Source: a virus
Taxonomy: Duplodnaviria > Caudoviricetes
DNA length: 36,896 nt
Reading direction: 5' to 3' (one strand)
IMG/VR virus record: IMGVR_UViG_3300008255_000256
Location: 1-36,896 of that record
Under the pieces are notes generated by a model. That model was given only the letters and a program-made list of their open reading frames with translations, was not told the origin of the DNA and searched no databases. The translations under genes and the position numbers were made by a program. Shown piece by piece: positions 26,821 to 36,616 of this stretch. The first letter of the stretch is position 1. Every line of letters starts with the position of its first letter.

Positions 26821-26843
26821 TATTTCGGTTATTATTTACCTTA

Positions 26844-27655: not shown

Positions 27656-27747
27656 AACTTATAAATTACAAATACGAGTAAAATAAACGCTCCTAAAATA
27701 TAACGTGATGCATGTTTGTCTTGGTCTCTTTTGAATTTTCTTTTCAT
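27646..27747 (-). CDS. very small membrane peptide (33 aa)
   Basis: Read manually; ATGA overlap with the helicase stop; one TM segment. Confidence 0.35.
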   Translation of the reverse strand: MKRKFKRDQDKHASRYILGAFILLVFVIYKLWS

Positions 27748-28922
27748 TTTATTATGATTTTAAGTCCTTCAGGTGATACAACTCTCGATAACGCTACATA
27801 CATTTGCCCTTTTTGGAAACATGGGCGCGTTAAATCAACGGTCACCTCATCGAATGTCATTCCTTGGCTTTTGTGAATACTCATTGCATACGCTAATCTA
27901 ATCGGATACTGCTCTATTGATCCGATAGTGTTTAATTCAAGTTCTTGTTTTTCATAATTAAAAACATACTCCTTTTTATCGAACTCCTTTTTTTCTAGTA
28001 GATATTCAACGCCTTTTACTTTTATGAAATATCCATTTTTATTTGATATAAATTCTCCTATCGTTCCATTTCTTAATGGATTATTCGTTGAATTAATTAG
28101 GTGCATTATTTTTGCGCCGTGCTTTACTCTTAATTTACTTTCAAGGTTAAAATCTTCAGCGTTTATATTTCCTGTTACTTTAGCGTCAAAAATAAGAAGT
28201 TTAGAATATATTTTTGATAATCCATCTTCATTGTACTTCATAGCCGTTGAATTATGAGGAGCTAGAATTATTCCAGACGGATCATTCGACACAAACTGTT
28301 TAAAATATTCACTTTTACCACCGTCACGAATTATATTTAAATTCGATACAAACTCCTCATTTTTCTGCCTTAACACCTCATCTAATTCAATTACTAAAGG
28401 ATTGATTTCCGAGTAGATGAATGAGTCCATGAATGTAATCCCTTTATATCCTTTCTGAAACATCACAGCCTTTGAATTATCATCTAGCACAACGGGTAAT
28501 TGTTTCATGTCGCCTATAAATATAATTTGCTTAGTCGATAACGGTTTGCAATTATTCTTTAAAAGCGTCCAATTCATAGCGTCTAAAACGTCAGGGCGTA
28601 ACATCGATACTTCATCAATGAAAATTGTGGTCACTTCGTCGAGTAGTCTCCGTTTTTCTTTTTTCATAAAGTTACAGGTAGAAAAATCTAAAACTCCATA
28701 AGGAAAAAGTGAAAACATAGAATGAATAGTTTGTCCATTAATGTGATTCGCCGCCATTCCTGTTGGCGCAATTGCAACGATTCGTTTACCTCGTTTTTTC
28801 AATTCAGATATCGCATGACTAACGATAAACGATTTTCCAGTTCCAGCCTTACCAGTCAGAAATATATTTTGACCAGATTTTACAAGCTCTATAAATTCGT
28901 TTTGTTTTGAGGATAATTTCAT
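27744..28922 (-). CDS. PIF1/RecD-like SF1B helicase
   Basis: GKAGTGKS, APTGMAA, TIHS, IDEVSM, GDMKQLP, LAYAMSIHKSQG, GQMYVALSRV. Confidence 0.92.
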   Translation of the reverse strand: MKLSSKQNEFIELVKSGQNIFLTGKAGTGKSFIVSHAISELKKRGKRIVAIAPTGMAANHINGQTIHSMFSLFPYGVLDFSTCNFMKKEKRRLLDEVTTIFIDEVSMLRPDVLDAMNWTLLKNNCKPLSTKQIIFIGDMKQLPVVLDDNSKAVMFQKGYKGITFMDSFIYSEINPLVIELDEVLRQKNEEFVSNLNIIRDGGKSEYFKQFVSNDPSGIILAPHNSTAMKYNEDGLSKIYSKLLIFDAKVTGNINAEDFNLESKLRVKHGAKIMHLINSTNNPLRNGTIGEFISNKNGYFIKVKGVEYLLEKKEFDKKEYVFNYEKQELELNTIGSIEQYPIRLAYAMSIHKSQGMTFDEVTVDLTRPCFQKGQMYVALSRVVSPEGLKIIIK

Positions 28923-29373: not shown

Positions 29374-29394
29374 ATTTCGGTTTTTATTTTTTTT

Positions 29395-29825: not shown

Positions 29826-29946
29826 TCCGTTGTGGTGAAACTGGTAAACACGCTCTCGGCAGGGTAGTATGTAATGGCGTTGAATGTAGAGATACGCCCA
29901 GAAATAAAGTAATTACAATTTGCAGGTTCGAATCCTGTCAACGGAA
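29826..29946 (+). ncRNA. tRNA-like RNA B (no canonical anticodon loop)
   Basis: Acceptor TCCGTTG/CAACGGA+A, D-arm GTGAAACTGGTAAACAC, T-arm GCAGG-TTCGAAT-CCTGT; 121 nt. Confidence 0.8.
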
Positions 29947-29970
29947 CTAACAAATAAAAACAAATAAATA

Positions 29971-30374: not shown

Positions 30375-30403
30375 CCCCTCTATTAATTTAGAGGGGATTT
30401 TTT
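30375..30403 (+). terminator. intrinsic terminator
   Basis: CCCCTCTA-TTAATT-TAGAGGGG followed by ATTTTTT. Confidence 0.7.
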
Positions 30404-30412
30404 AACCGAAAT

Positions 30413-30652
30413 ATGAAAAACTGTAAAATTAAACGGGTGATAGTTCCGTATGCAAATATGCACGAATTTACGGATGTTGAATTTATTAAACTATTTGGTA
30501 AAATTCCTGATTTTAGAAAATTTATAACATGCGCTAACATTTCAGATGGATTAAAATATGAGAATTCAAATCCAGAAATAAAATATTTAGAAGGTCGTGT
30601 TAAATTCGTCAAATTCACACCTGAGCAATTCTTAAAACATTACCTGAAATGA
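30413..30652 (+). CDS. hypothetical protein
   Basis: 79 aa; ATGA overlap with the helicase. Confidence 0.55.
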   Translation: MKNCKIKRVIVPYANMHEFTDVEFIKLFGKIPDFRKFITCANISDGLKYENSNPEIKYLEGRVKFVKFTPEQFLKHYLK

Positions 30653-33102
30653 TAACACCGAGAGATTATCAATCTGTATTTATCAACAATACACGCAACG
30701 AATTAATTAATAATCGTTCGGTTCTTGGTGTTCTACCAACTGGTGGCGGTAAAACTGTTTGTTTCACCTACATCACTCAACTCGCTATGCAACGAAATTC
30801 AATCGTATGGATTATAGCACACCGCAAGGAATTAATTAATCAGGCATCTAAAACATTAAACTCATTTGGAGTAAAACACGGTATCATTTCACCAAAATTT
30901 ACACCTAATTACCACTCAAACGTTCAAGTCGCATCAGTTCAAACGTTAGCGAATAGATATCATAAATATGAAAATCCAAATATTATCATAATCGACGAGT
31001 GTTTTACAGGTGAAACGTTAGTAGATGGTGTAAGAATTGATTCTTTAGTTGTTGGAGAAGAAATATCATCGTTTAATCATGACTATTCTAAAATTGAAAA
31101 AAAGAGAATAGAGAAAATATACAATAGAGAATATACTGGAGATTGGTATAGAGTCAAGATGATGGACGGTACCGAAATAGTATGCACAGAAAACCACCCT
31201 TTCTATGTTGCTTCAAAAGGGTATATTTCTATAAAAGAAATAAAAAAAACAAGTGATAACTGCAACATGATGCCTATATTTGTTTCTAATGAAATAAACA
31301 ATGAAAGATATTTGTCAAAATTGCCAAAAATTCACCGAAAGGAGCAAACCCAAAAGACTGAAAAAGTTTTGCGATACAAAATGCAAGGCAGAATTTTACA
31401 ATCTAAGTCTGAGTCCACTTCCAGAATTGAGATGTTTAATTTGCGAAAAGAAATCGAACTATTACAAGACGAGAAAATCGCATTTAGAAGCATCAAGGAA
31501 AGGTCGATCATTTTGCTCAAAGGAATGTGTAAAGACATATCAAAAACAGTTGAGTTCAGAGACAATGTCCAAGACAAACCGAAAATATGCCTCAGAAAGG
31601 ATGAAAGTAAAAAACCCTATGTTCAACGAGAAATCATTAGAAAAAATGAAGAATTCAATGCAGGGAAAAACTTTCCTGTCTCGAGGCGGAAATGGTCAAA
31701 ATACAAGGCAACAAATATTATTAGCGAACGCTTTAAATCTACCAACGGAACATGCTATAACCTTAAAGTCTGTAAAACACTTGTTTCAAAGCGTCCCGAA
31801 CTGCTACAAGGTAGATATCGCCTATCCACAGATCAAGTTAGCAATAGAAGTGGATGGAAAGACTCACAGGCTGAAGAAATGGAAGTTCTTAGACAGAAGG
31901 AAAACGGAAATTTTATCGGAATTAGGGTGGACTGTATTGAGGTTTACAAACGAGGAAGTGGACAACGACCTGAATGGGTGCCTGGAAATAACACAGTCTA
32001 TAATATCCACGTTGAAGACAATCTAAATTATTTTGCAAATGGAATTTTAGTTCACAATTGTCATCACAGTACAGCTGGGCAATGGCGTAAAATAATCGAC
32101 CAATATCCAGATGCCAAAGTAATCGGAGTTACGGCAACACCTGAACGTTCTGACGGAATTGGACTCGGTGATATTTACGATTCATTGGTTATTGGACCAC
32201 AAATTTATGAATTAATCGAATTAGGGTATTTAGTACCTCCAATTGTGTATCGACCTCCAATGGTTGCTGAATTAAACGATGTTAAACGTCATAAATCCGA
32301 TTATGTTCGCGAGGATCTTGCAAGGGTAATGAATAAGCCAACAATTACAGGTGACGCGATTGAACATTACAAAAAACACGCTTATGGATTACCTACAATT
32401 GTATTCACAGCAAACGTTCAACACGCAAAAGATGTTGCTAAACAATTTAGAGATTATGGCTTTGCGTTCTATGCAATTGACGGCTCGATTGATGATAAAG
32501 AACGTGACCGATTAATTAACGGTTTGGGTGGTCCAGATGTAACAGGATTAGTTTCATGTGATTTGATTTCTGAGGGAACGGATATTCCTGCTGTTGGATG
32601 TTTGATTTTATTACGTCCAACTCAATCATTAGGTTTGTTTTTACAGCAAATAGGACGTGGACTAAGAACGATTGAAGGTAAATCGAATTGTATAATTTTG
32701 GACCATGTAGGAAATACATTGCGTCATGGAATGCCAACACAACATCGTGAATGGTCGCTTGAAGGGCGTAAAAAAAGAGGTTCGAAAGCAGTACAAGAAG
32801 ATGATATAAACATCACGACATGCACTGAATGTTATTTCACGTCAACGAAGTTCAGTATTTGCCCGTCCTGTGGATTTGAGGTTAAAATAATACCTCAATC
32901 TGAAATCGAAACTGTTGATGGTGAATTACAGTTAGCTGAAGAAATAGAACGAAAGGAAAAGGCAGAATTAAAACAAGCAGTTTACAACGCACGTGATCGT
33001 GAATCGTTGGAGGCGATAGCGAAGCAAAAAGGGTATAAACGCGGTTGGGTTGAACACATGTTGAAATCTAGAGCCGAAAAAGAATTAAATCGAGTATTAT
33101 GA
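30649..33102 (+). CDS. SF2 DExH helicase with intein (464 aa after splicing)
   Basis: PRDYQ, LPTGGGKT, IIDE^CHH, GVTATPER, SEGTDIP, QQIGRGLR and C-terminal CxxC..CxxC. Confidence 0.93.
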   Translation: MITPRDYQSVFINNTRNELINNRSVLGVLPTGGGKTVCFTYITQLAMQRNSIVWIIAHRKELINQASKTLNSFGVKHGIISPKFTPNYHSNVQVASVQTLANRYHKYENPNIIIIDECFTGETLVDGVRIDSLVVGEEISSFNHDYSKIEKKRIEKIYNREYTGDWYRVKMMDGTEIVCTENHPFYVASKGYISIKEIKKTSDNCNMMPIFVSNEINNERYLSKLPKIHRKEQTQKTEKVLRYKMQGRILQSKSESTSRIEMFNLRKEIELLQDEKIAFRSIKERSIILLKGMCKDISKTVEFRDNVQDKPKICLRKDESKKPYVQREIIRKNEEFNAGKNFPVSRRKWSKYKATNIISERFKSTNGTCYNLKVCKTLVSKRPELLQGRYRLSTDQVSNRSGWKDSQAEEMEVLRQKENGNFIGIRVDCIEVYKRGSGQRPEWVPGNNTVYNIHVEDNLNYFANGILVHNCHHSTAGQWRKIIDQYPDAKVIGVTATPERSDGIGLGDIYDSLVIGPQIYELIELGYLVPPIVYRPPMVAELNDVKRHKSDYVREDLARVMNKPTITGDAIEHYKKHAYGLPTIVFTANVQHAKDVAKQFRDYGFAFYAIDGSIDDKERDRLINGLGGPDVTGLVSCDLISEGTDIPAVGCLILLRPTQSLGLFLQQIGRGLRTIEGKSNCIILDHVGNTLRHGMPTQHREWSLEGRKKRGSKAVQEDDINITTCTECYFTSTKFSICPSCGFEVKIIPQSEIETVDGELQLAEEIERKEKAELKQAVYNARDRESLEAIAKQKGYKRGWVEHMLKSRAEKELNRVL
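31275..31282 (+). promoter_or_regulatory. candidate internal -7 promoter for the nested endonuclease
   Basis: TATATTTG ends 18 nt before ATG 31301; no clear -33 element. Confidence 0.55.
31301..32026 (+). CDS. Vsr/DUF559-like putative homing endonuclease nested in the +1 frame of the intein
   Basis: Two CxxC...FCxxxC repeats, NUMOD-like linker, YKVDIAYPQIKLAIEVDGKTH...DRRKTEILSELGWTVLRFTNEEV. Confidence 0.88.
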   Translation: MKDICQNCQKFTERSKPKRLKKFCDTKCKAEFYNLSLSPLPELRCLICEKKSNYYKTRKSHLEASRKGRSFCSKECVKTYQKQLSSETMSKTNRKYASERMKVKNPMFNEKSLEKMKNSMQGKTFLSRGGNGQNTRQQILLANALNLPTEHAITLKSVKHLFQSVPNCYKVDIAYPQIKLAIEVDGKTHRLKKWKFLDRRKTEILSELGWTVLRFTNEEVDNDLNGCLEITQSIISTLKTI

Positions 33103-33542: not shown

Positions 33543-33931
33543 AAGAAACGAACCTAATGCGACTAATTATGGTGTCGCTATCGAAACGTGGTTTTCGTAT
33601 GTTCAGAAACAATACGGGTAAGGCTTACGTCGGTAATTCATACGTGAGAATCGCTAAATCTGGTATGCACTTCATCGAACAGGGAGATATGATTATTAAA
33701 TCACCTCGTATTTTTCATGCTGGACTGATTAAGGGATCTTCCGATTTGATTGGATGGAAAACTACTGAAATAACTCAGGATATGGTTGGAAAAAAAATTG
33801 CTATATTCACAGCCGTTGAAGTAAAAACACCGAGAGGTAAACCATCCGACGAACAAATCAATTTTATTAATCAAGTGAACAACAACGGTGGCATTGCCAC
33901 AATAATGAAATCCGAAAACGACCCTATATGA
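33539..33931 (+). CDS. VRR-NUC domain nuclease
   Basis: FRNNTG, GSSDLIG, AVEVKTPRGKPSDEQ..F. Confidence 0.88.
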   Translation: MKETNLMRLIMVSLSKRGFRMFRNNTGKAYVGNSYVRIAKSGMHFIEQGDMIIKSPRIFHAGLIKGSSDLIGWKTTEITQDMVGKKIAIFTAVEVKTPRGKPSDEQINFINQVNNNGGIATIMKSENDPI

Positions 33932-36564
33932 AATACGAAATTTTAAACCGAATAAATATTATTGATGTTGTTTCTCAGTCTTTAGAACTTAAACCAAAGG
34001 GTAAAAACCATATTGGAAAATGTCCATTTCACGATGATAAAAAGGCCTCTTTAATCGTTAACGAAAACCGTCAGAAATATAAATGTTTCGCATGTGGTGT
34101 TGGTGGTGATGCAATCGATTTTATTTCCAATATAAAACATGTTGATTTTAAACAGGCAGTCGCAATTCTGGACGGTGACGATCGTTTAATTATTCCGGAT
34201 GATCAACTTCAAACGTTTCAGGAAAAACAAAAAAAATATCAACTCGATATATTACCAATTTCTGACCCTGAAATTAAAGCAACGTTTTTTCATAATCAAC
34301 TCGGAATGCCGAAAAACGTTTATCCATATAAAAATCTAAACAACGATTTAATCGGATACACGTGTAAATTCGTTCATGAGGACGGCTCAAAAGATGTTTT
34401 ACCTTACGTTTTCGTGAAATATCAGAACGAAAACACTGGATGGTGTTACGCTGGTTTTCCTTCGCCTCGACCAATGTACGGAATGGAGTTTCTCGGCGCT
34501 TATCCAGATGCTACAGTAATAACCGTTGAAGGTGAAAAATGTGCTGATTTCGGTAATTCCAAAATACATAATTCGGAATATCGTGGTAAATATGTTTTTG
34601 TTTCGTGGATTGGTGGAGCTGAAGCAATACAACAGACTGATTTTTCAGCCATTTCAGATAGAAATATTATTCACTGGCCCGATAATGATGATCCAGGGCG
34701 TAAGGCAATGACATCGATAGGAAAAATCGTTGGTGGTCGTTATCTAAATATTCCAACTGATAAGCCTGATAAATGGGATGTTGCTGATGAGGATTGGTCT
34801 GCTGATTCTATTATTAAATTCATCGATGAAAACACTCAGGTTTCACCACAAAAAAATAAATCTGAAAAACAAAAATCAGAACCTTTACCGCCTCCAGAAC
34901 CAATCGATAAACCTAATTTCGTTGATCCATTAGGTGAAAATTATTTTCGTGTACTTGGTTATTCTAAATCAGATAAATCACTATTAACATACTGGTTTTA
35001 TTCATACTCACATAAAATGACCGTTTGTTTTAACGCCTCATCGCTTACGAAGTCAAATTTAATGACGATCGCACATGTTCAATGGTGGGAATCAAAGTTC
35101 CCAGGTTCAGGAAATGCAAAAATAAATATGGATGCTGCAGTTCAGGCGTTAATAGATGCATGTAATCGAAAAGGTATTTTTAATGAGGATAAAATACGTG
35201 GTCGTGGTGCGTGGCAGGATGCTGATGATGTTGTTTTACATGTTGGTGATCATTTGGTTGTTAACGGTACCCGAAAGGAGCTATTCGAGTATAATTCGAA
35301 ATACATGTATGAGATCAACGATACAATCGAATACGGAGGGAACGAAGCATTGAAAATTGAAGATTCAAAAAAATTACTCGAGTTAATTAAATGGTTCGCA
35401 TGGGATCGTGACACAACTCCATATACATTCGCTGGATGGTTAGTCATTGCTCCATTTTGTGGTGTACTTGATAATCGACCTCATGGATGGTTAACATCTA
35501 CATCTGGAGCTGGTAAAACTTGGATTCAAGAAAATTTGATTCAGGCACTCGTTGGAGACATCGCGATAACGATGAACTCAGATACGACGTCTGCCGGTAT
35601 TCGTCAATCTCTACAGTCGGATGCGCGCCCGATTATATTCGATGAATCTGAAGCTGAAACACCTAGAGATCGTGAACGATTACAGGACACGTTAACGATG
35701 TTACGTGGTGCGTCAACGAAAAAGGGCGCCCGTATTATTAAAGGAACTCAATCCCAGTACGCGAAAACGTTTGTAATTAAAACGATGGCGATGTTATCCT
35801 CGATTGGTGTATATTTCACTCAAAGAGCCGATAAACGAAGATTCACAATATTCAGTCTGAAAAATGACCCATCGAAACGAGGTGAGGCGTTTGATGAATT
35901 CAAAAAACAGTTTTTCGAAGTGATTACAGAAGATTATGTAAAATCACTGCAGCAAAGAACTATAAAAATGCTCCCAACGATTATACATAACACGAAAATA
36001 TTCAAAGAGGCGTTAAGTATTGAAGTTTCTGACCGTTCGACTGGTGATTTACTAGGTGGATTGATCGCTGGAGCGTATTCGTTGATTTCGGATGATATTG
36101 TAACTGAGGAAACGGCTCGTAATTGGGTAAAAACGAATGATTGGACGCTCGAGAGAGAATTGAAAGATCAAAGTGACGAATTACTCATGTTTGATGAATT
36201 AATGTCTATGTCGGTAAGAATTGACCCTAGTAATTCGTACACGATTGGAGAAATGATAATGATTGAATTTGATCCTGCGATTCGAGTTACTGAATTATCT
36301 GGAAATTACGGTTTACACAAAGAAATAACTAGAAATTTATCCAGAATAGGAATTAAACAGGTTGGAAATCGTATCTGTATAGCTAATAATAATATTCCGT
36401 TAAAACGATTAATGCATCAGTCAACATGGGTTAATTCGATGGAGTCGTTGTTCCTAAGATTACCAGATGCAGAAAAGGATAACCCACGTGTCTACATGAC
36501 TGGACAATCATCAAAACGTGGTGTTTCGATACCGATTGAAATTTTAACAAATAATATTTTGTAA
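33928..36564 (+). CDS. DNA primase-helicase (CHC2 zinc finger, TOPRIM, P-loop domain)
   Basis: CPFHDD..S..C..C, VEGEKCAD, WPDNDDPG, SGAGKT, IIFDESE. Confidence 0.88.
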   Translation: MKYEILNRINIIDVVSQSLELKPKGKNHIGKCPFHDDKKASLIVNENRQKYKCFACGVGGDAIDFISNIKHVDFKQAVAILDGDDRLIIPDDQLQTFQEKQKKYQLDILPISDPEIKATFFHNQLGMPKNVYPYKNLNNDLIGYTCKFVHEDGSKDVLPYVFVKYQNENTGWCYAGFPSPRPMYGMEFLGAYPDATVITVEGEKCADFGNSKIHNSEYRGKYVFVSWIGGAEAIQQTDFSAISDRNIIHWPDNDDPGRKAMTSIGKIVGGRYLNIPTDKPDKWDVADEDWSADSIIKFIDENTQVSPQKNKSEKQKSEPLPPPEPIDKPNFVDPLGENYFRVLGYSKSDKSLLTYWFYSYSHKMTVCFNASSLTKSNLMTIAHVQWWESKFPGSGNAKINMDAAVQALIDACNRKGIFNEDKIRGRGAWQDADDVVLHVGDHLVVNGTRKELFEYNSKYMYEINDTIEYGGNEALKIEDSKKLLELIKWFAWDRDTTPYTFAGWLVIAPFCGVLDNRPHGWLTSTSGAGKTWIQENLIQALVGDIAITMNSDTTSAGIRQSLQSDARPIIFDESEAETPRDRERLQDTLTMLRGASTKKGARIIKGTQSQYAKTFVIKTMAMLSSIGVYFTQRADKRRFTIFSLKNDPSKRGEAFDEFKKQFFEVITEDYVKSLQQRTIKMLPTIIHNTKIFKEALSIEVSDRSTGDLLGGLIAGAYSLISDDIVTEETARNWVKTNDWTLERELKDQSDELLMFDELMSMSVRIDPSNSYTIGEMIMIEFDPAIRVTELSGNYGLHKEITRNLSRIGIKQVGNRICIANNNIPLKRLMHQSTWVNSMESLFLRLPDAEKDNPRVYMTGQSSKRGVSIPIEILTNNIL

Positions 36565-36590: not shown

Positions 36591-36616
36591 TCGTATTAAT
36601 AATTTAAAACCGAAAT

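Follow-up and report, generated by a model that had tools for sequence, protein, structure and literature searches.

The 36.9-kb virus record IMGVR_UViG_3300008255_000256, about 75 % complete and analysed here over its whole length of 36,896 nucleotides (the window), carries a superfamily 2 (SF2) helicase gene whose Walker B motif is interrupted by a 353-aa intein, and within the DNA of that intein lies a second gene, read in the +1 frame, that encodes a 241-aa protein with zinc-finger-like repeats and a Vsr/DUF559-fold domain. All 154 distinct elements share this +1 layout, purifying selection acts on the +1 frame, and there has been transfer of the element among phage helicases that are themselves divergent. 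Very probably, the element combines an intein that would splice itself out of the helicase with a separately translated homing nuclease, the two being locked in phase by a DNA segment that both proteins share.

A helicase intein and a predicted nuclease in the same DNA

The helicase open reading frame (ORF; 30649-33102, + strand, 817 aa) is free of stops throughout. Its N-extein (30649..30999, +), of the ResIII/DEAD-like SF2 type with a ResIII match of 80.5 bits, ends in Walker B as ...IIIDE; the contiguous class 1 intein (31000..32058, +) then runs from C1 to HN/C+1, and the C-extein (32059..33102, +) begins with C+1 HH and contains a Helicase_C domain by Pfam. The N-terminal splicing region (31000..31275, +), comprising blocks A and B, is delimited by an IN profile match and by matches to inteins in the PDB over residues 17-84. 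In addition to C1, the intein has TENH in block B, VYNIHV in block F (31996-32013) and HN/C+1; it scores 44.8 bits with Pfam Intein_splicing (cut-off 35.8) and matches the sequences of solved inteins at E 2e-4 to 7e-3. The 353-aa in-frame insertion is missing at DE^ in the homologues P0124-P0126, and its length equals the difference from the empty 464-aa allele of P0124. From these motifs, the intein is predicted to rejoin the helicase by splicing at C1 and HN/C+1. An earlier note, made from the DNA alone, had described an uninterrupted intein with intact splicing blocks and no recognisable domain between them in the intein frame, and both descriptions hold, with Pfam adding no domain in the intein-frame middle. 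No relative was found among the viral contigs searched with the intein-frame protein, as is expected because the filler is unconstrained.

The nuclease gene (31301..32026, +) begins with a Cys-rich part containing two zinc-finger-like CxxC...CSxxC repeats (about residues 5-80), which weakly match MYM, FCS and L24e zinc fingers (E 0.01-0.3). The motifs RMxxxNPM and RGGNG occupy the middle, and the Vsr/DUF559-fold domain, with D172, E183, D185, H189 and D198, spans about residues 130-241. Pfam DUF559 matches residues 154-230 with 50.8 bits (cut-off 20.6), and a profile match to a Vsr-like C-terminal domain has an E of 0.0037; Pfam returned no NUMOD match in the nuclease, and PHROGs no family for it. 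A structure model built from a 36-sequence alignment, with a predicted local distance difference test score (pLDDT) of 90, was compared by VIA-align with I-Bth0305I (3r3p; Z 11.0, root-mean-square deviation (rmsd) 2.4, 90 residues aligned) and with Vsr (1cw0; Z 9.9, rmsd 2.2, 97 aligned). The spacing of D172, H189 and D198 (+17, +9) is that of D196, H213 and D222 in I-Bth0305I. These predicted catalytic positions are invariant in 154/154 distinct elements, and neither D172 nor D198 was part of the search patterns. Thus, the coherent Cys-repeat and Vsr/DUF559-like nuclease that the earlier note had read at 31301-32026 is confirmed by both the DUF559 score and the fold matches.

Over the nuclease stretch, frame 0 and frame +1 are both stop-free, while the third forward frame has 29 stops and the reverse frames have 7-20. 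Given the nuclease protein and the codon usage of the phage, 25.5 stops are expected in the intein frame and the probability of finding none is 1.4e-17, in agreement with the earlier judgement that two such open frames are very unlikely to arise by chance. A stop-avoidance count of 0/6814, which is true by construction, was not used as support.

The wider family was assembled from 244 fetched loci, being the best 80 of each large scan as chosen by nuclease motifs, which together with the window gave 245; loci were classified with profiles made from their own intein ends. The close loci, with a nuclease score of at least 100 bits, number 195, and the other 50/245 are distant DUF559 genes without an intein. 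A contiguous intein with the nuclease in +1 is present in 174 of the 195, corresponding to 154 distinct elements at 95 % identity and 131 at 50 %. No complete in-frame, +2 or antisense member occurs among the 195 close loci, and antisense forms are absent from all 245. Splicing motifs are well kept among the distinct elements, with C1 in 149/154, TxxH in 140/154 and a terminal Asn followed by Cys or Ser at +1 in 154/154. The insertion point lies directly after the DE of Walker B in 126/153 and two to four residues further on in 22/153. Of 30 N-exteins submitted to Pfam, 21 were matched, as ResIII/DEAD, SNF2 or AAA+ clamp-loader types. In six loci (L050, L078, L126, L128, L171 and L181), the intein occupies the Walker B of DnaX-like AAA+ clamp loaders and has crossed from one ATPase superfamily to another. 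Among cultured phages, 40 records match, and in 40/40 the host coding sequence is the sole annotation over the nuclease; the +1 layout is identical in the 5/5 cultured-phage loci examined. The accessible text of the phi673 genome paper (PMC6132909) notes the intein and mentions no nuclease. Two helicases (L002, from 4134 onward, and L246) have a second or third intein-like insertion beyond the one in Walker B.

Selection in two frames and the dual-coding overlap

The ratio of non-synonymous to synonymous substitution rates (dN/dS), scored in both frames over 13 independent pairs, is 0.19 in the nuclease frame versus 1.06 in the intein frame for nuclease residues 1-80, 0.15 versus 1.48 for residues 81-204, and 0.27 versus 0.93 for the overlap with the splicing region, in which third-position divergence is 0.24, down from 0.42-0.50 elsewhere. 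The codon changes between Vibrio phages 1.194.O and 1.088.O are 31 synonymous and 4 non-synonymous when read in the nuclease frame, as opposed to 5 and 29 when read in the intein frame; the corresponding figures for 159E43 and 103E44 are 19 and 7, and 2 and 23. Purifying selection on the +1 frame, which the earlier note had expected of a per-frame comparison, is therefore what the pairs reveal, and the intein frame over the nuclease is kept merely stop-free, except in its last 38 or so codons, where both frames are constrained. The earlier picture of a nuclease sitting in a filler loop needs a corresponding amendment: it is apt for 31301..31911 (+), where the intein frame (dN/dS 1.06-1.48) is unconstrained save for its lack of stops, but not for those last codons, which encode part of the C-terminal splicing region.

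That dual-function overlap (31912..32026, +; 115 nt), recognized from profiles, divergence and codon choice, encodes GWTVLRF of the nuclease (from 31925) as RVDCIEV in the intein frame and places the nuclease tail over VYNIHV of block F. In most of the relatives shown, the 3' end of the nuclease gene reaches about 100-140 nt into the C-terminal splicing region. When read one base back, GWxVLRF becomes R-V-E/D-S-V/I-E-I/V, and this pattern is present in 109/148 contiguous members, 1/7 free-standing relatives and 0/10 distant genes that have the motif. The Leu codon of GWxVLRF is TTR in 132/145 (control 907/1871) and its Arg codon is AGR in 117/148 (control 979/2375), with both biases holding in both bins of guanine-plus-cytosine content; therefore, the intein frame shapes codon choice in the overlap. 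Mini-inteins have VKIKSI at the matching place before block F. The shared GWxVLRF segment is likely what locks the nuclease phase at +1.

Proposed homing, expression and competing explanations

In the proposed cycle, the helicase precursor would splice at C1 and HN/C+1, discarding the filler, and the nuclease would be translated separately, in the window element probably from an internal promoter of the Bacteroidota type. During co-infection, the nuclease would cut an empty Walker B-coding allele, and repair would copy the whole intein, often along with the adjacent Cys codon. What would lock the phase is a strand that the splicing domain requires ahead of block F, encoded by the DNA of the conserved GWxVLRF in the frame one base back.

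The distribution of the intein among helicases bears on the homing step. Among 120 helicase matches, 39 are empty, 33 have a large intein (the window's included) and 48 have a mini-intein, and the three closest to the window's helicase, at 80-93 % identity, are all empty. Identity between 1.194.O and 1.088.O is 95.8 % for the intein and 67-81 % for its flanks, and the 1.194.O N-extein shares 93 % identity with three empty alleles. Phages phi673 (L369) and phi674 (L374), which share a host, have helicase genes that are 99 % identical, one with and the other without the intein, and 7 of their 17 differences lie no more than 78 nt after the insertion site (p 5e-4, with the codon counted once). 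Full, partly deleted and mini alleles (P0156, P0160 and P0178) exist within one helicase clade. In these three, as well as in P0127 and P0128, the intein ends are near-identical; deleted forms retain the nuclease-derived C-terminal segment and minis carry a different strand.

In three near-neighbour comparisons (the window versus P0124-P0126, phi673 (Cys) versus phi674 (Val), and 159E43 versus 142E35), the +1 residue is Ala or Val in the empty allele and Cys in the invaded one. The earlier note had proposed a target with Cys at +1; since the three nearest empty alleles, P0124-P0126, read DE^A rather than DE^C, a Cys target is just one candidate. Import of the Cys codon during homing fits these comparisons, and the survival of cut-resistant non-Cys alleles also fits them. 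Cys is already at +1 in four empty Vibrio alleles and in 10/39 empty matches, which speaks against a general import.

Alternatively, the +1 protein, though expressed and under selection, could serve some purpose other than homing, such as repair, recombination or competition between phages, and use the intein only as a shelter. The DUF559/Vsr folds do include repair enzymes, the best structural match of the nuclease model (3hrl) is an uncharacterised protein, and at least six distinct free-standing relatives are interspersed with the intein-borne ones. However, a patchy presence in near-identical genes, an intein more alike than its flanks, a clade in which full, partly deleted and mini alleles fit a homing cycle, and the location of all 154 elements at the Walker B motifs of unrelated ATPases make this explanation improbable.

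As for expression of the homing nuclease, the gene has its own ATG, an A-rich leader (31286..31300, +) with A at -3, -12 and -13 and no Shine-Dalgarno (SD) sequence, and a candidate -7 promoter element, TATATTTG (31275..31282, +), that ends 18 nt before the ATG; all three had been pointed out in the earlier note. TAnnTTTG is the Bacteroidota -7 consensus given in the accessible part of PMC7366714, which also states that the -33 motif was not found in Flavobacterium. In the window, an SD-like word precedes 0/48 ORFs and leaders are A-rich, and because of these traits and the TAnnTTTG elements a Bacteroidota host is suggested for the phage. There are 12 copies of TATATTTG in the window versus 4.1 expected, although the loose TAnnTTTG pattern is not enriched (62 versus 51.5), and the post hoc chance of a copy falling in the slot before the nuclease ATG is about 0.003. 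TTTG at about -33 is absent before 31275 and is found 21 nt before two other TATATTTG copies in the phage. The MMPIFV stretch is shared with P0127, the closest intein relative, with 6/8 identical versus 65/199 in the filler, which only hints that the TATATTTG DNA may be conserved. A DNA pattern search for the promoter context yielded 120 loci, none with a nuclease or intein match, and these were dismissed as chance matches. Overall, the evidence fits TATATTTG as a putative Bacteroidota promoter that is local to the window element and not a family trait, so that a promoter role of the element may be kept for this phage and must be given up for the family. Family-wide, the first CxxC has an ATG no more than 8 codons away in 87/152 versus 36 expected (control 12/87), and SD-like words occur at 43/131 nuclease starts versus a background of 14.5 %. 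Hence, the nuclease is most likely translated from its own start codon.

There is a slim chance that the nuclease, though real, is made by +1 ribosomal frameshifting or transcriptional slippage as a fusion of N-extein, intein and nuclease. This notion is compatible with the DNA of L064, where the N-half is in frame with the nuclease, with the lack of a recognisable promoter or SD in most members, and with an A-run at about 31239-31249. Yet, +1 stops lie between that A-run and the ATG, the last of them closing the +1 frame two codons 5' of the start; the enrichment of ATG just before the first CxxC would be unaccounted for; and the upstream k-mers reveal no shared non-coding slippery word.

One might also read the locus as an in-frame endonuclease intein disguised by assembly errors or by frameshifts that compensate each other, or as a long ORF due to chance. 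In-frame endonucleases are indeed usual in inteins (712/784 in Gosselin 2025, in the part accessible), and a single run accounts for the coverage of 79 nt of the intein, but the family data refute this reading: the phase is the same in 154 distinct elements and 5/5 cultured-phage loci, and +1 is under purifying selection. In addition, the helicase frame needs no repair and the contigs show no indel. The check for assembly frameshifts that the earlier note advised used the contigs of eight sequencing runs, rather than raw reads, and uncovered no indel in the intein region in 8/8. Run X1, from which the record may itself derive, spans the entire region and the other runs cover 30966-31655 and 31735-32071 with zero differences, leaving 31656-31734 supported by X1 alone. 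Nor did the 195 close loci include a complete in-frame member, such as the earlier note had thought homologues might reveal. No contig in the 8/8 runs joins across the intein as an empty allele would, a result that is uninformative either way. A run from a manure metagenome (X12) contains a contig pair, matching window 30922-31346, with a close intein relative in a more diverged helicase and no indels.

Several observations weigh against the homing-intein account. The top VIA-align match of the nuclease model is 3hrl (Z 12.3), ahead of both known enzymes, and Foldseek found no match for the model at E <= 0.001, the best being 3r3p at 2.6e-3. For the first Glu of EDxHD (E170 of I-Bth0305I), the candidates are Q138 (89 % Q) and E150 (92 % E); the model would make the +1 protein EDxHD-like in action, its membership of that group being only partly shown. 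Structure prediction of both frames, as the earlier note had recommended, was fruitful for the nuclease, but the single-sequence model of the intein-frame product has a pLDDT of 29 and is uninformative on the Hint fold. Half of the other 11 TATATTTG copies are within genes (6, versus 5 upstream of ORF starts), TAnnTTTG is present in only 3/131 family members and is ruled out as a family-wide promoter, and an SD-like word is missing at the chosen start in 88/131. The selection of loci by nuclease motifs under-samples decayed and in-frame forms, and the remaining 21/195 close loci depart from the common layout: 9 are free-standing or lack an intein match, 7, most of them at contig ends, retain a single half, 4 contain stops in the intein frame and 1 is an N-half fusion. 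Finally, the RVxxIE segment is presumably a required strand of the Hint fold, an assumption drawn from general knowledge and from the position of the corresponding mini-intein segment.

A more far-reaching version of the account seems to us possible but doubtful. In it, the elements would form a large unannotated lineage in which dual coding welds nuclease and splicing domain together (GWxVLRF serving as an intein beta-strand and allowing no slide in frame), and which invades the Walker B of unrelated ATPases, imports the Cys+1 codon into DE-Ala and DE-Val alleles, and has directly given rise to fractured-gene split inteins as well as to free-standing nucleases.

Relatives, phage context and known systems

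In three loci that form one clade (L008 (438-2666), L149 and L187; support 100/99), the intein N part is followed by a stop, what was once filler contains 15-30 stops, and a Met precedes the C part; the +1 phase is kept in all three. These helicase inteins are naturally split, the nuclease lying between the two halves, and are candidate new trans-splicing pairs. Another locus, L115, has one stop only, which may be a mutation or an error. FastTree nests the split clade among contiguous forms; in IQ-TREE, run on 51/175 rows, the backbone is open and monophyly of the contiguous forms is not rejected (p-AU, from the approximately unbiased test, 0.106), so that, despite the FastTree nesting, a contiguous-to-split direction, as in the earlier note's idea of an intermediate toward split inteins, is not claimed. 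A single ORF of L064 (2356-3549) takes in the helicase N part, the intein N part and a shortened nuclease. The intein C part is in the frame one base back, and beneath the nuclease that frame has remained open, pointing to a recent frameshift or an assembly error. Four free-standing nuclease relatives (L060, L133, L137 and L172) either stop where an SF2 helicase-like ORF, as judged from motifs by eye, starts or run into its beginning. Their layout is that expected of a free-standing homing gene beside its target, and they are scattered among intein-borne members in the trees.

The window is inferred to come from a tailed phage with a contractile tail because terminase, portal, head, sheath and baseplate genes are present. 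The best-matching sequencing runs are aquifer metagenomes, and no RNA runs were among the matches listed. Elsewhere in the phage are a PIF1-like helicase (27744-28922, -) and a DnaG zinc-finger primase-helicase-like protein (33928-36564, +), with RecT-like and PDDEXK genes adjoining. A tRNA-like stretch was seen by eye at 29829-29950 (GGTGAAACTGGTAAACAC ... GGTTCGAATCC); ARAGORN reported zero tRNAs across the window, that stretch included. A AACCGAAAT-like word lies repeatedly directly 5' of start codons in the early/replication region, at 30400-30412 and 36604-36616 and, on the - strand, before 28922, near 29380 and near 26830; it is possibly a translation or operator signal.

Contiguous inteins with an endonuclease in another frame are already in print, and the earlier proposal of an undescribed third architecture must be withdrawn, since both Gosselin 2025 (10.1101/2025.01.02.630785) and Phillips 2026 (10.64898/2026.09.14.751524) describe such inteins. 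The former, in its accessible part, reports actinobacteriophage inteins with an antisense LAGLIDADG, an antisense VSR-like or a same-strand endonuclease VII (frame 3) gene, and its authors suggest that free-standing genes invaded and that there is a connection with split inteins. A contiguous intein, a stop-free unstructured filler and an endonuclease in another frame are common to those elements and the window's, and their VSR-like/EDxHD-like enzyme also matches 3R3P. However, their VSR-like gene is antisense, whereas the nuclease of the window family is sense +1; the hosts given there are DNA polymerase, minor capsid, terminase and thymidylate synthase, with no helicases, as opposed to the Walker B of SF2 helicases and AAA+ clamp loaders; and the window family differs further in its zinc-finger repeats, its at least 154 distinct elements and its overlap into the splicing region. 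The same source suggests that same-strand ORFs could slip into frame, against which the frame lock proposed here would argue. Phillips 2026, which credits Gorbalenya 1998 for the layout and calls it rare, describes a cyanobacterial dnaX intein with a +2 LAGLIDADG and analyses dN/dS per frame. That intein is like the window's, as interpreted here, in having an out-of-frame overlapping homing endonuclease with its own start, and like the window family in its low nuclease-frame and high intein-frame dN/dS and its coexisting empty, mini and full alleles; it differs in that its LAGLIDADG is in '+2' in one host gene, whereas the window family spans many ATPase genes and hosts.

Three further systems are comparable, again as described in the accessible parts of their sources. 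In the fractured genes of Dassa 2009 (PMC2677866), too, a Vsr-like gene on the same strand lies between the N and C parts of an intein and overlaps the C part at its 3' end. Those inteins, however, are split ones, which have a stop, a hairpin-containing spacer of 27-51 nt and an overlap of 6-69 bp, whereas the window intein is a single open frame with an overlap of the longer family range; L008, L149 and L187 match the split form. I-Bth0305I (Taylor 2011, PMC3239194) has the C-terminal Vsr fold and triad spacing of the window nuclease, but two N-terminal NUMOD2/helix-turn-helix repeats and a group I intron in place of zinc-finger-like repeats and an intein. In the ShiLan insertion (Arsenault 2025, PMC11855218), a nuclease is likewise hidden, in another frame, in an insertion without stops within a phage gene; it is, however, an HNH enzyme in a methylase host without a splicing domain, rather than a Vsr-like enzyme in a helicase intein. 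Although the general layout is thus published, neither a family of sense-strand Vsr/DUF559 nucleases within inteins of helicases, nor the frame lock likely for it, nor phi673/phi674 as a test pair was found in the literature covered, subscription journals and preprint supplements being outside that coverage.

Out-of-frame intein endonucleases have been treated as rare in print, yet this family alone has at least 154 distinct members that annotation has missed, and inteins filed as 'degenerate endonuclease' may be active homing elements. The family also clearly exemplifies, in nature, an overlapping gene of 700 nt whose zone of dual constraint can be measured, and bears on both the gain of endonucleases by secondary invasion and the origin of split inteins. 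With phi673 and phi674 growing on Corynebacterium glutamicum, the expression, splicing and homing of an out-of-frame intein nuclease are directly testable.

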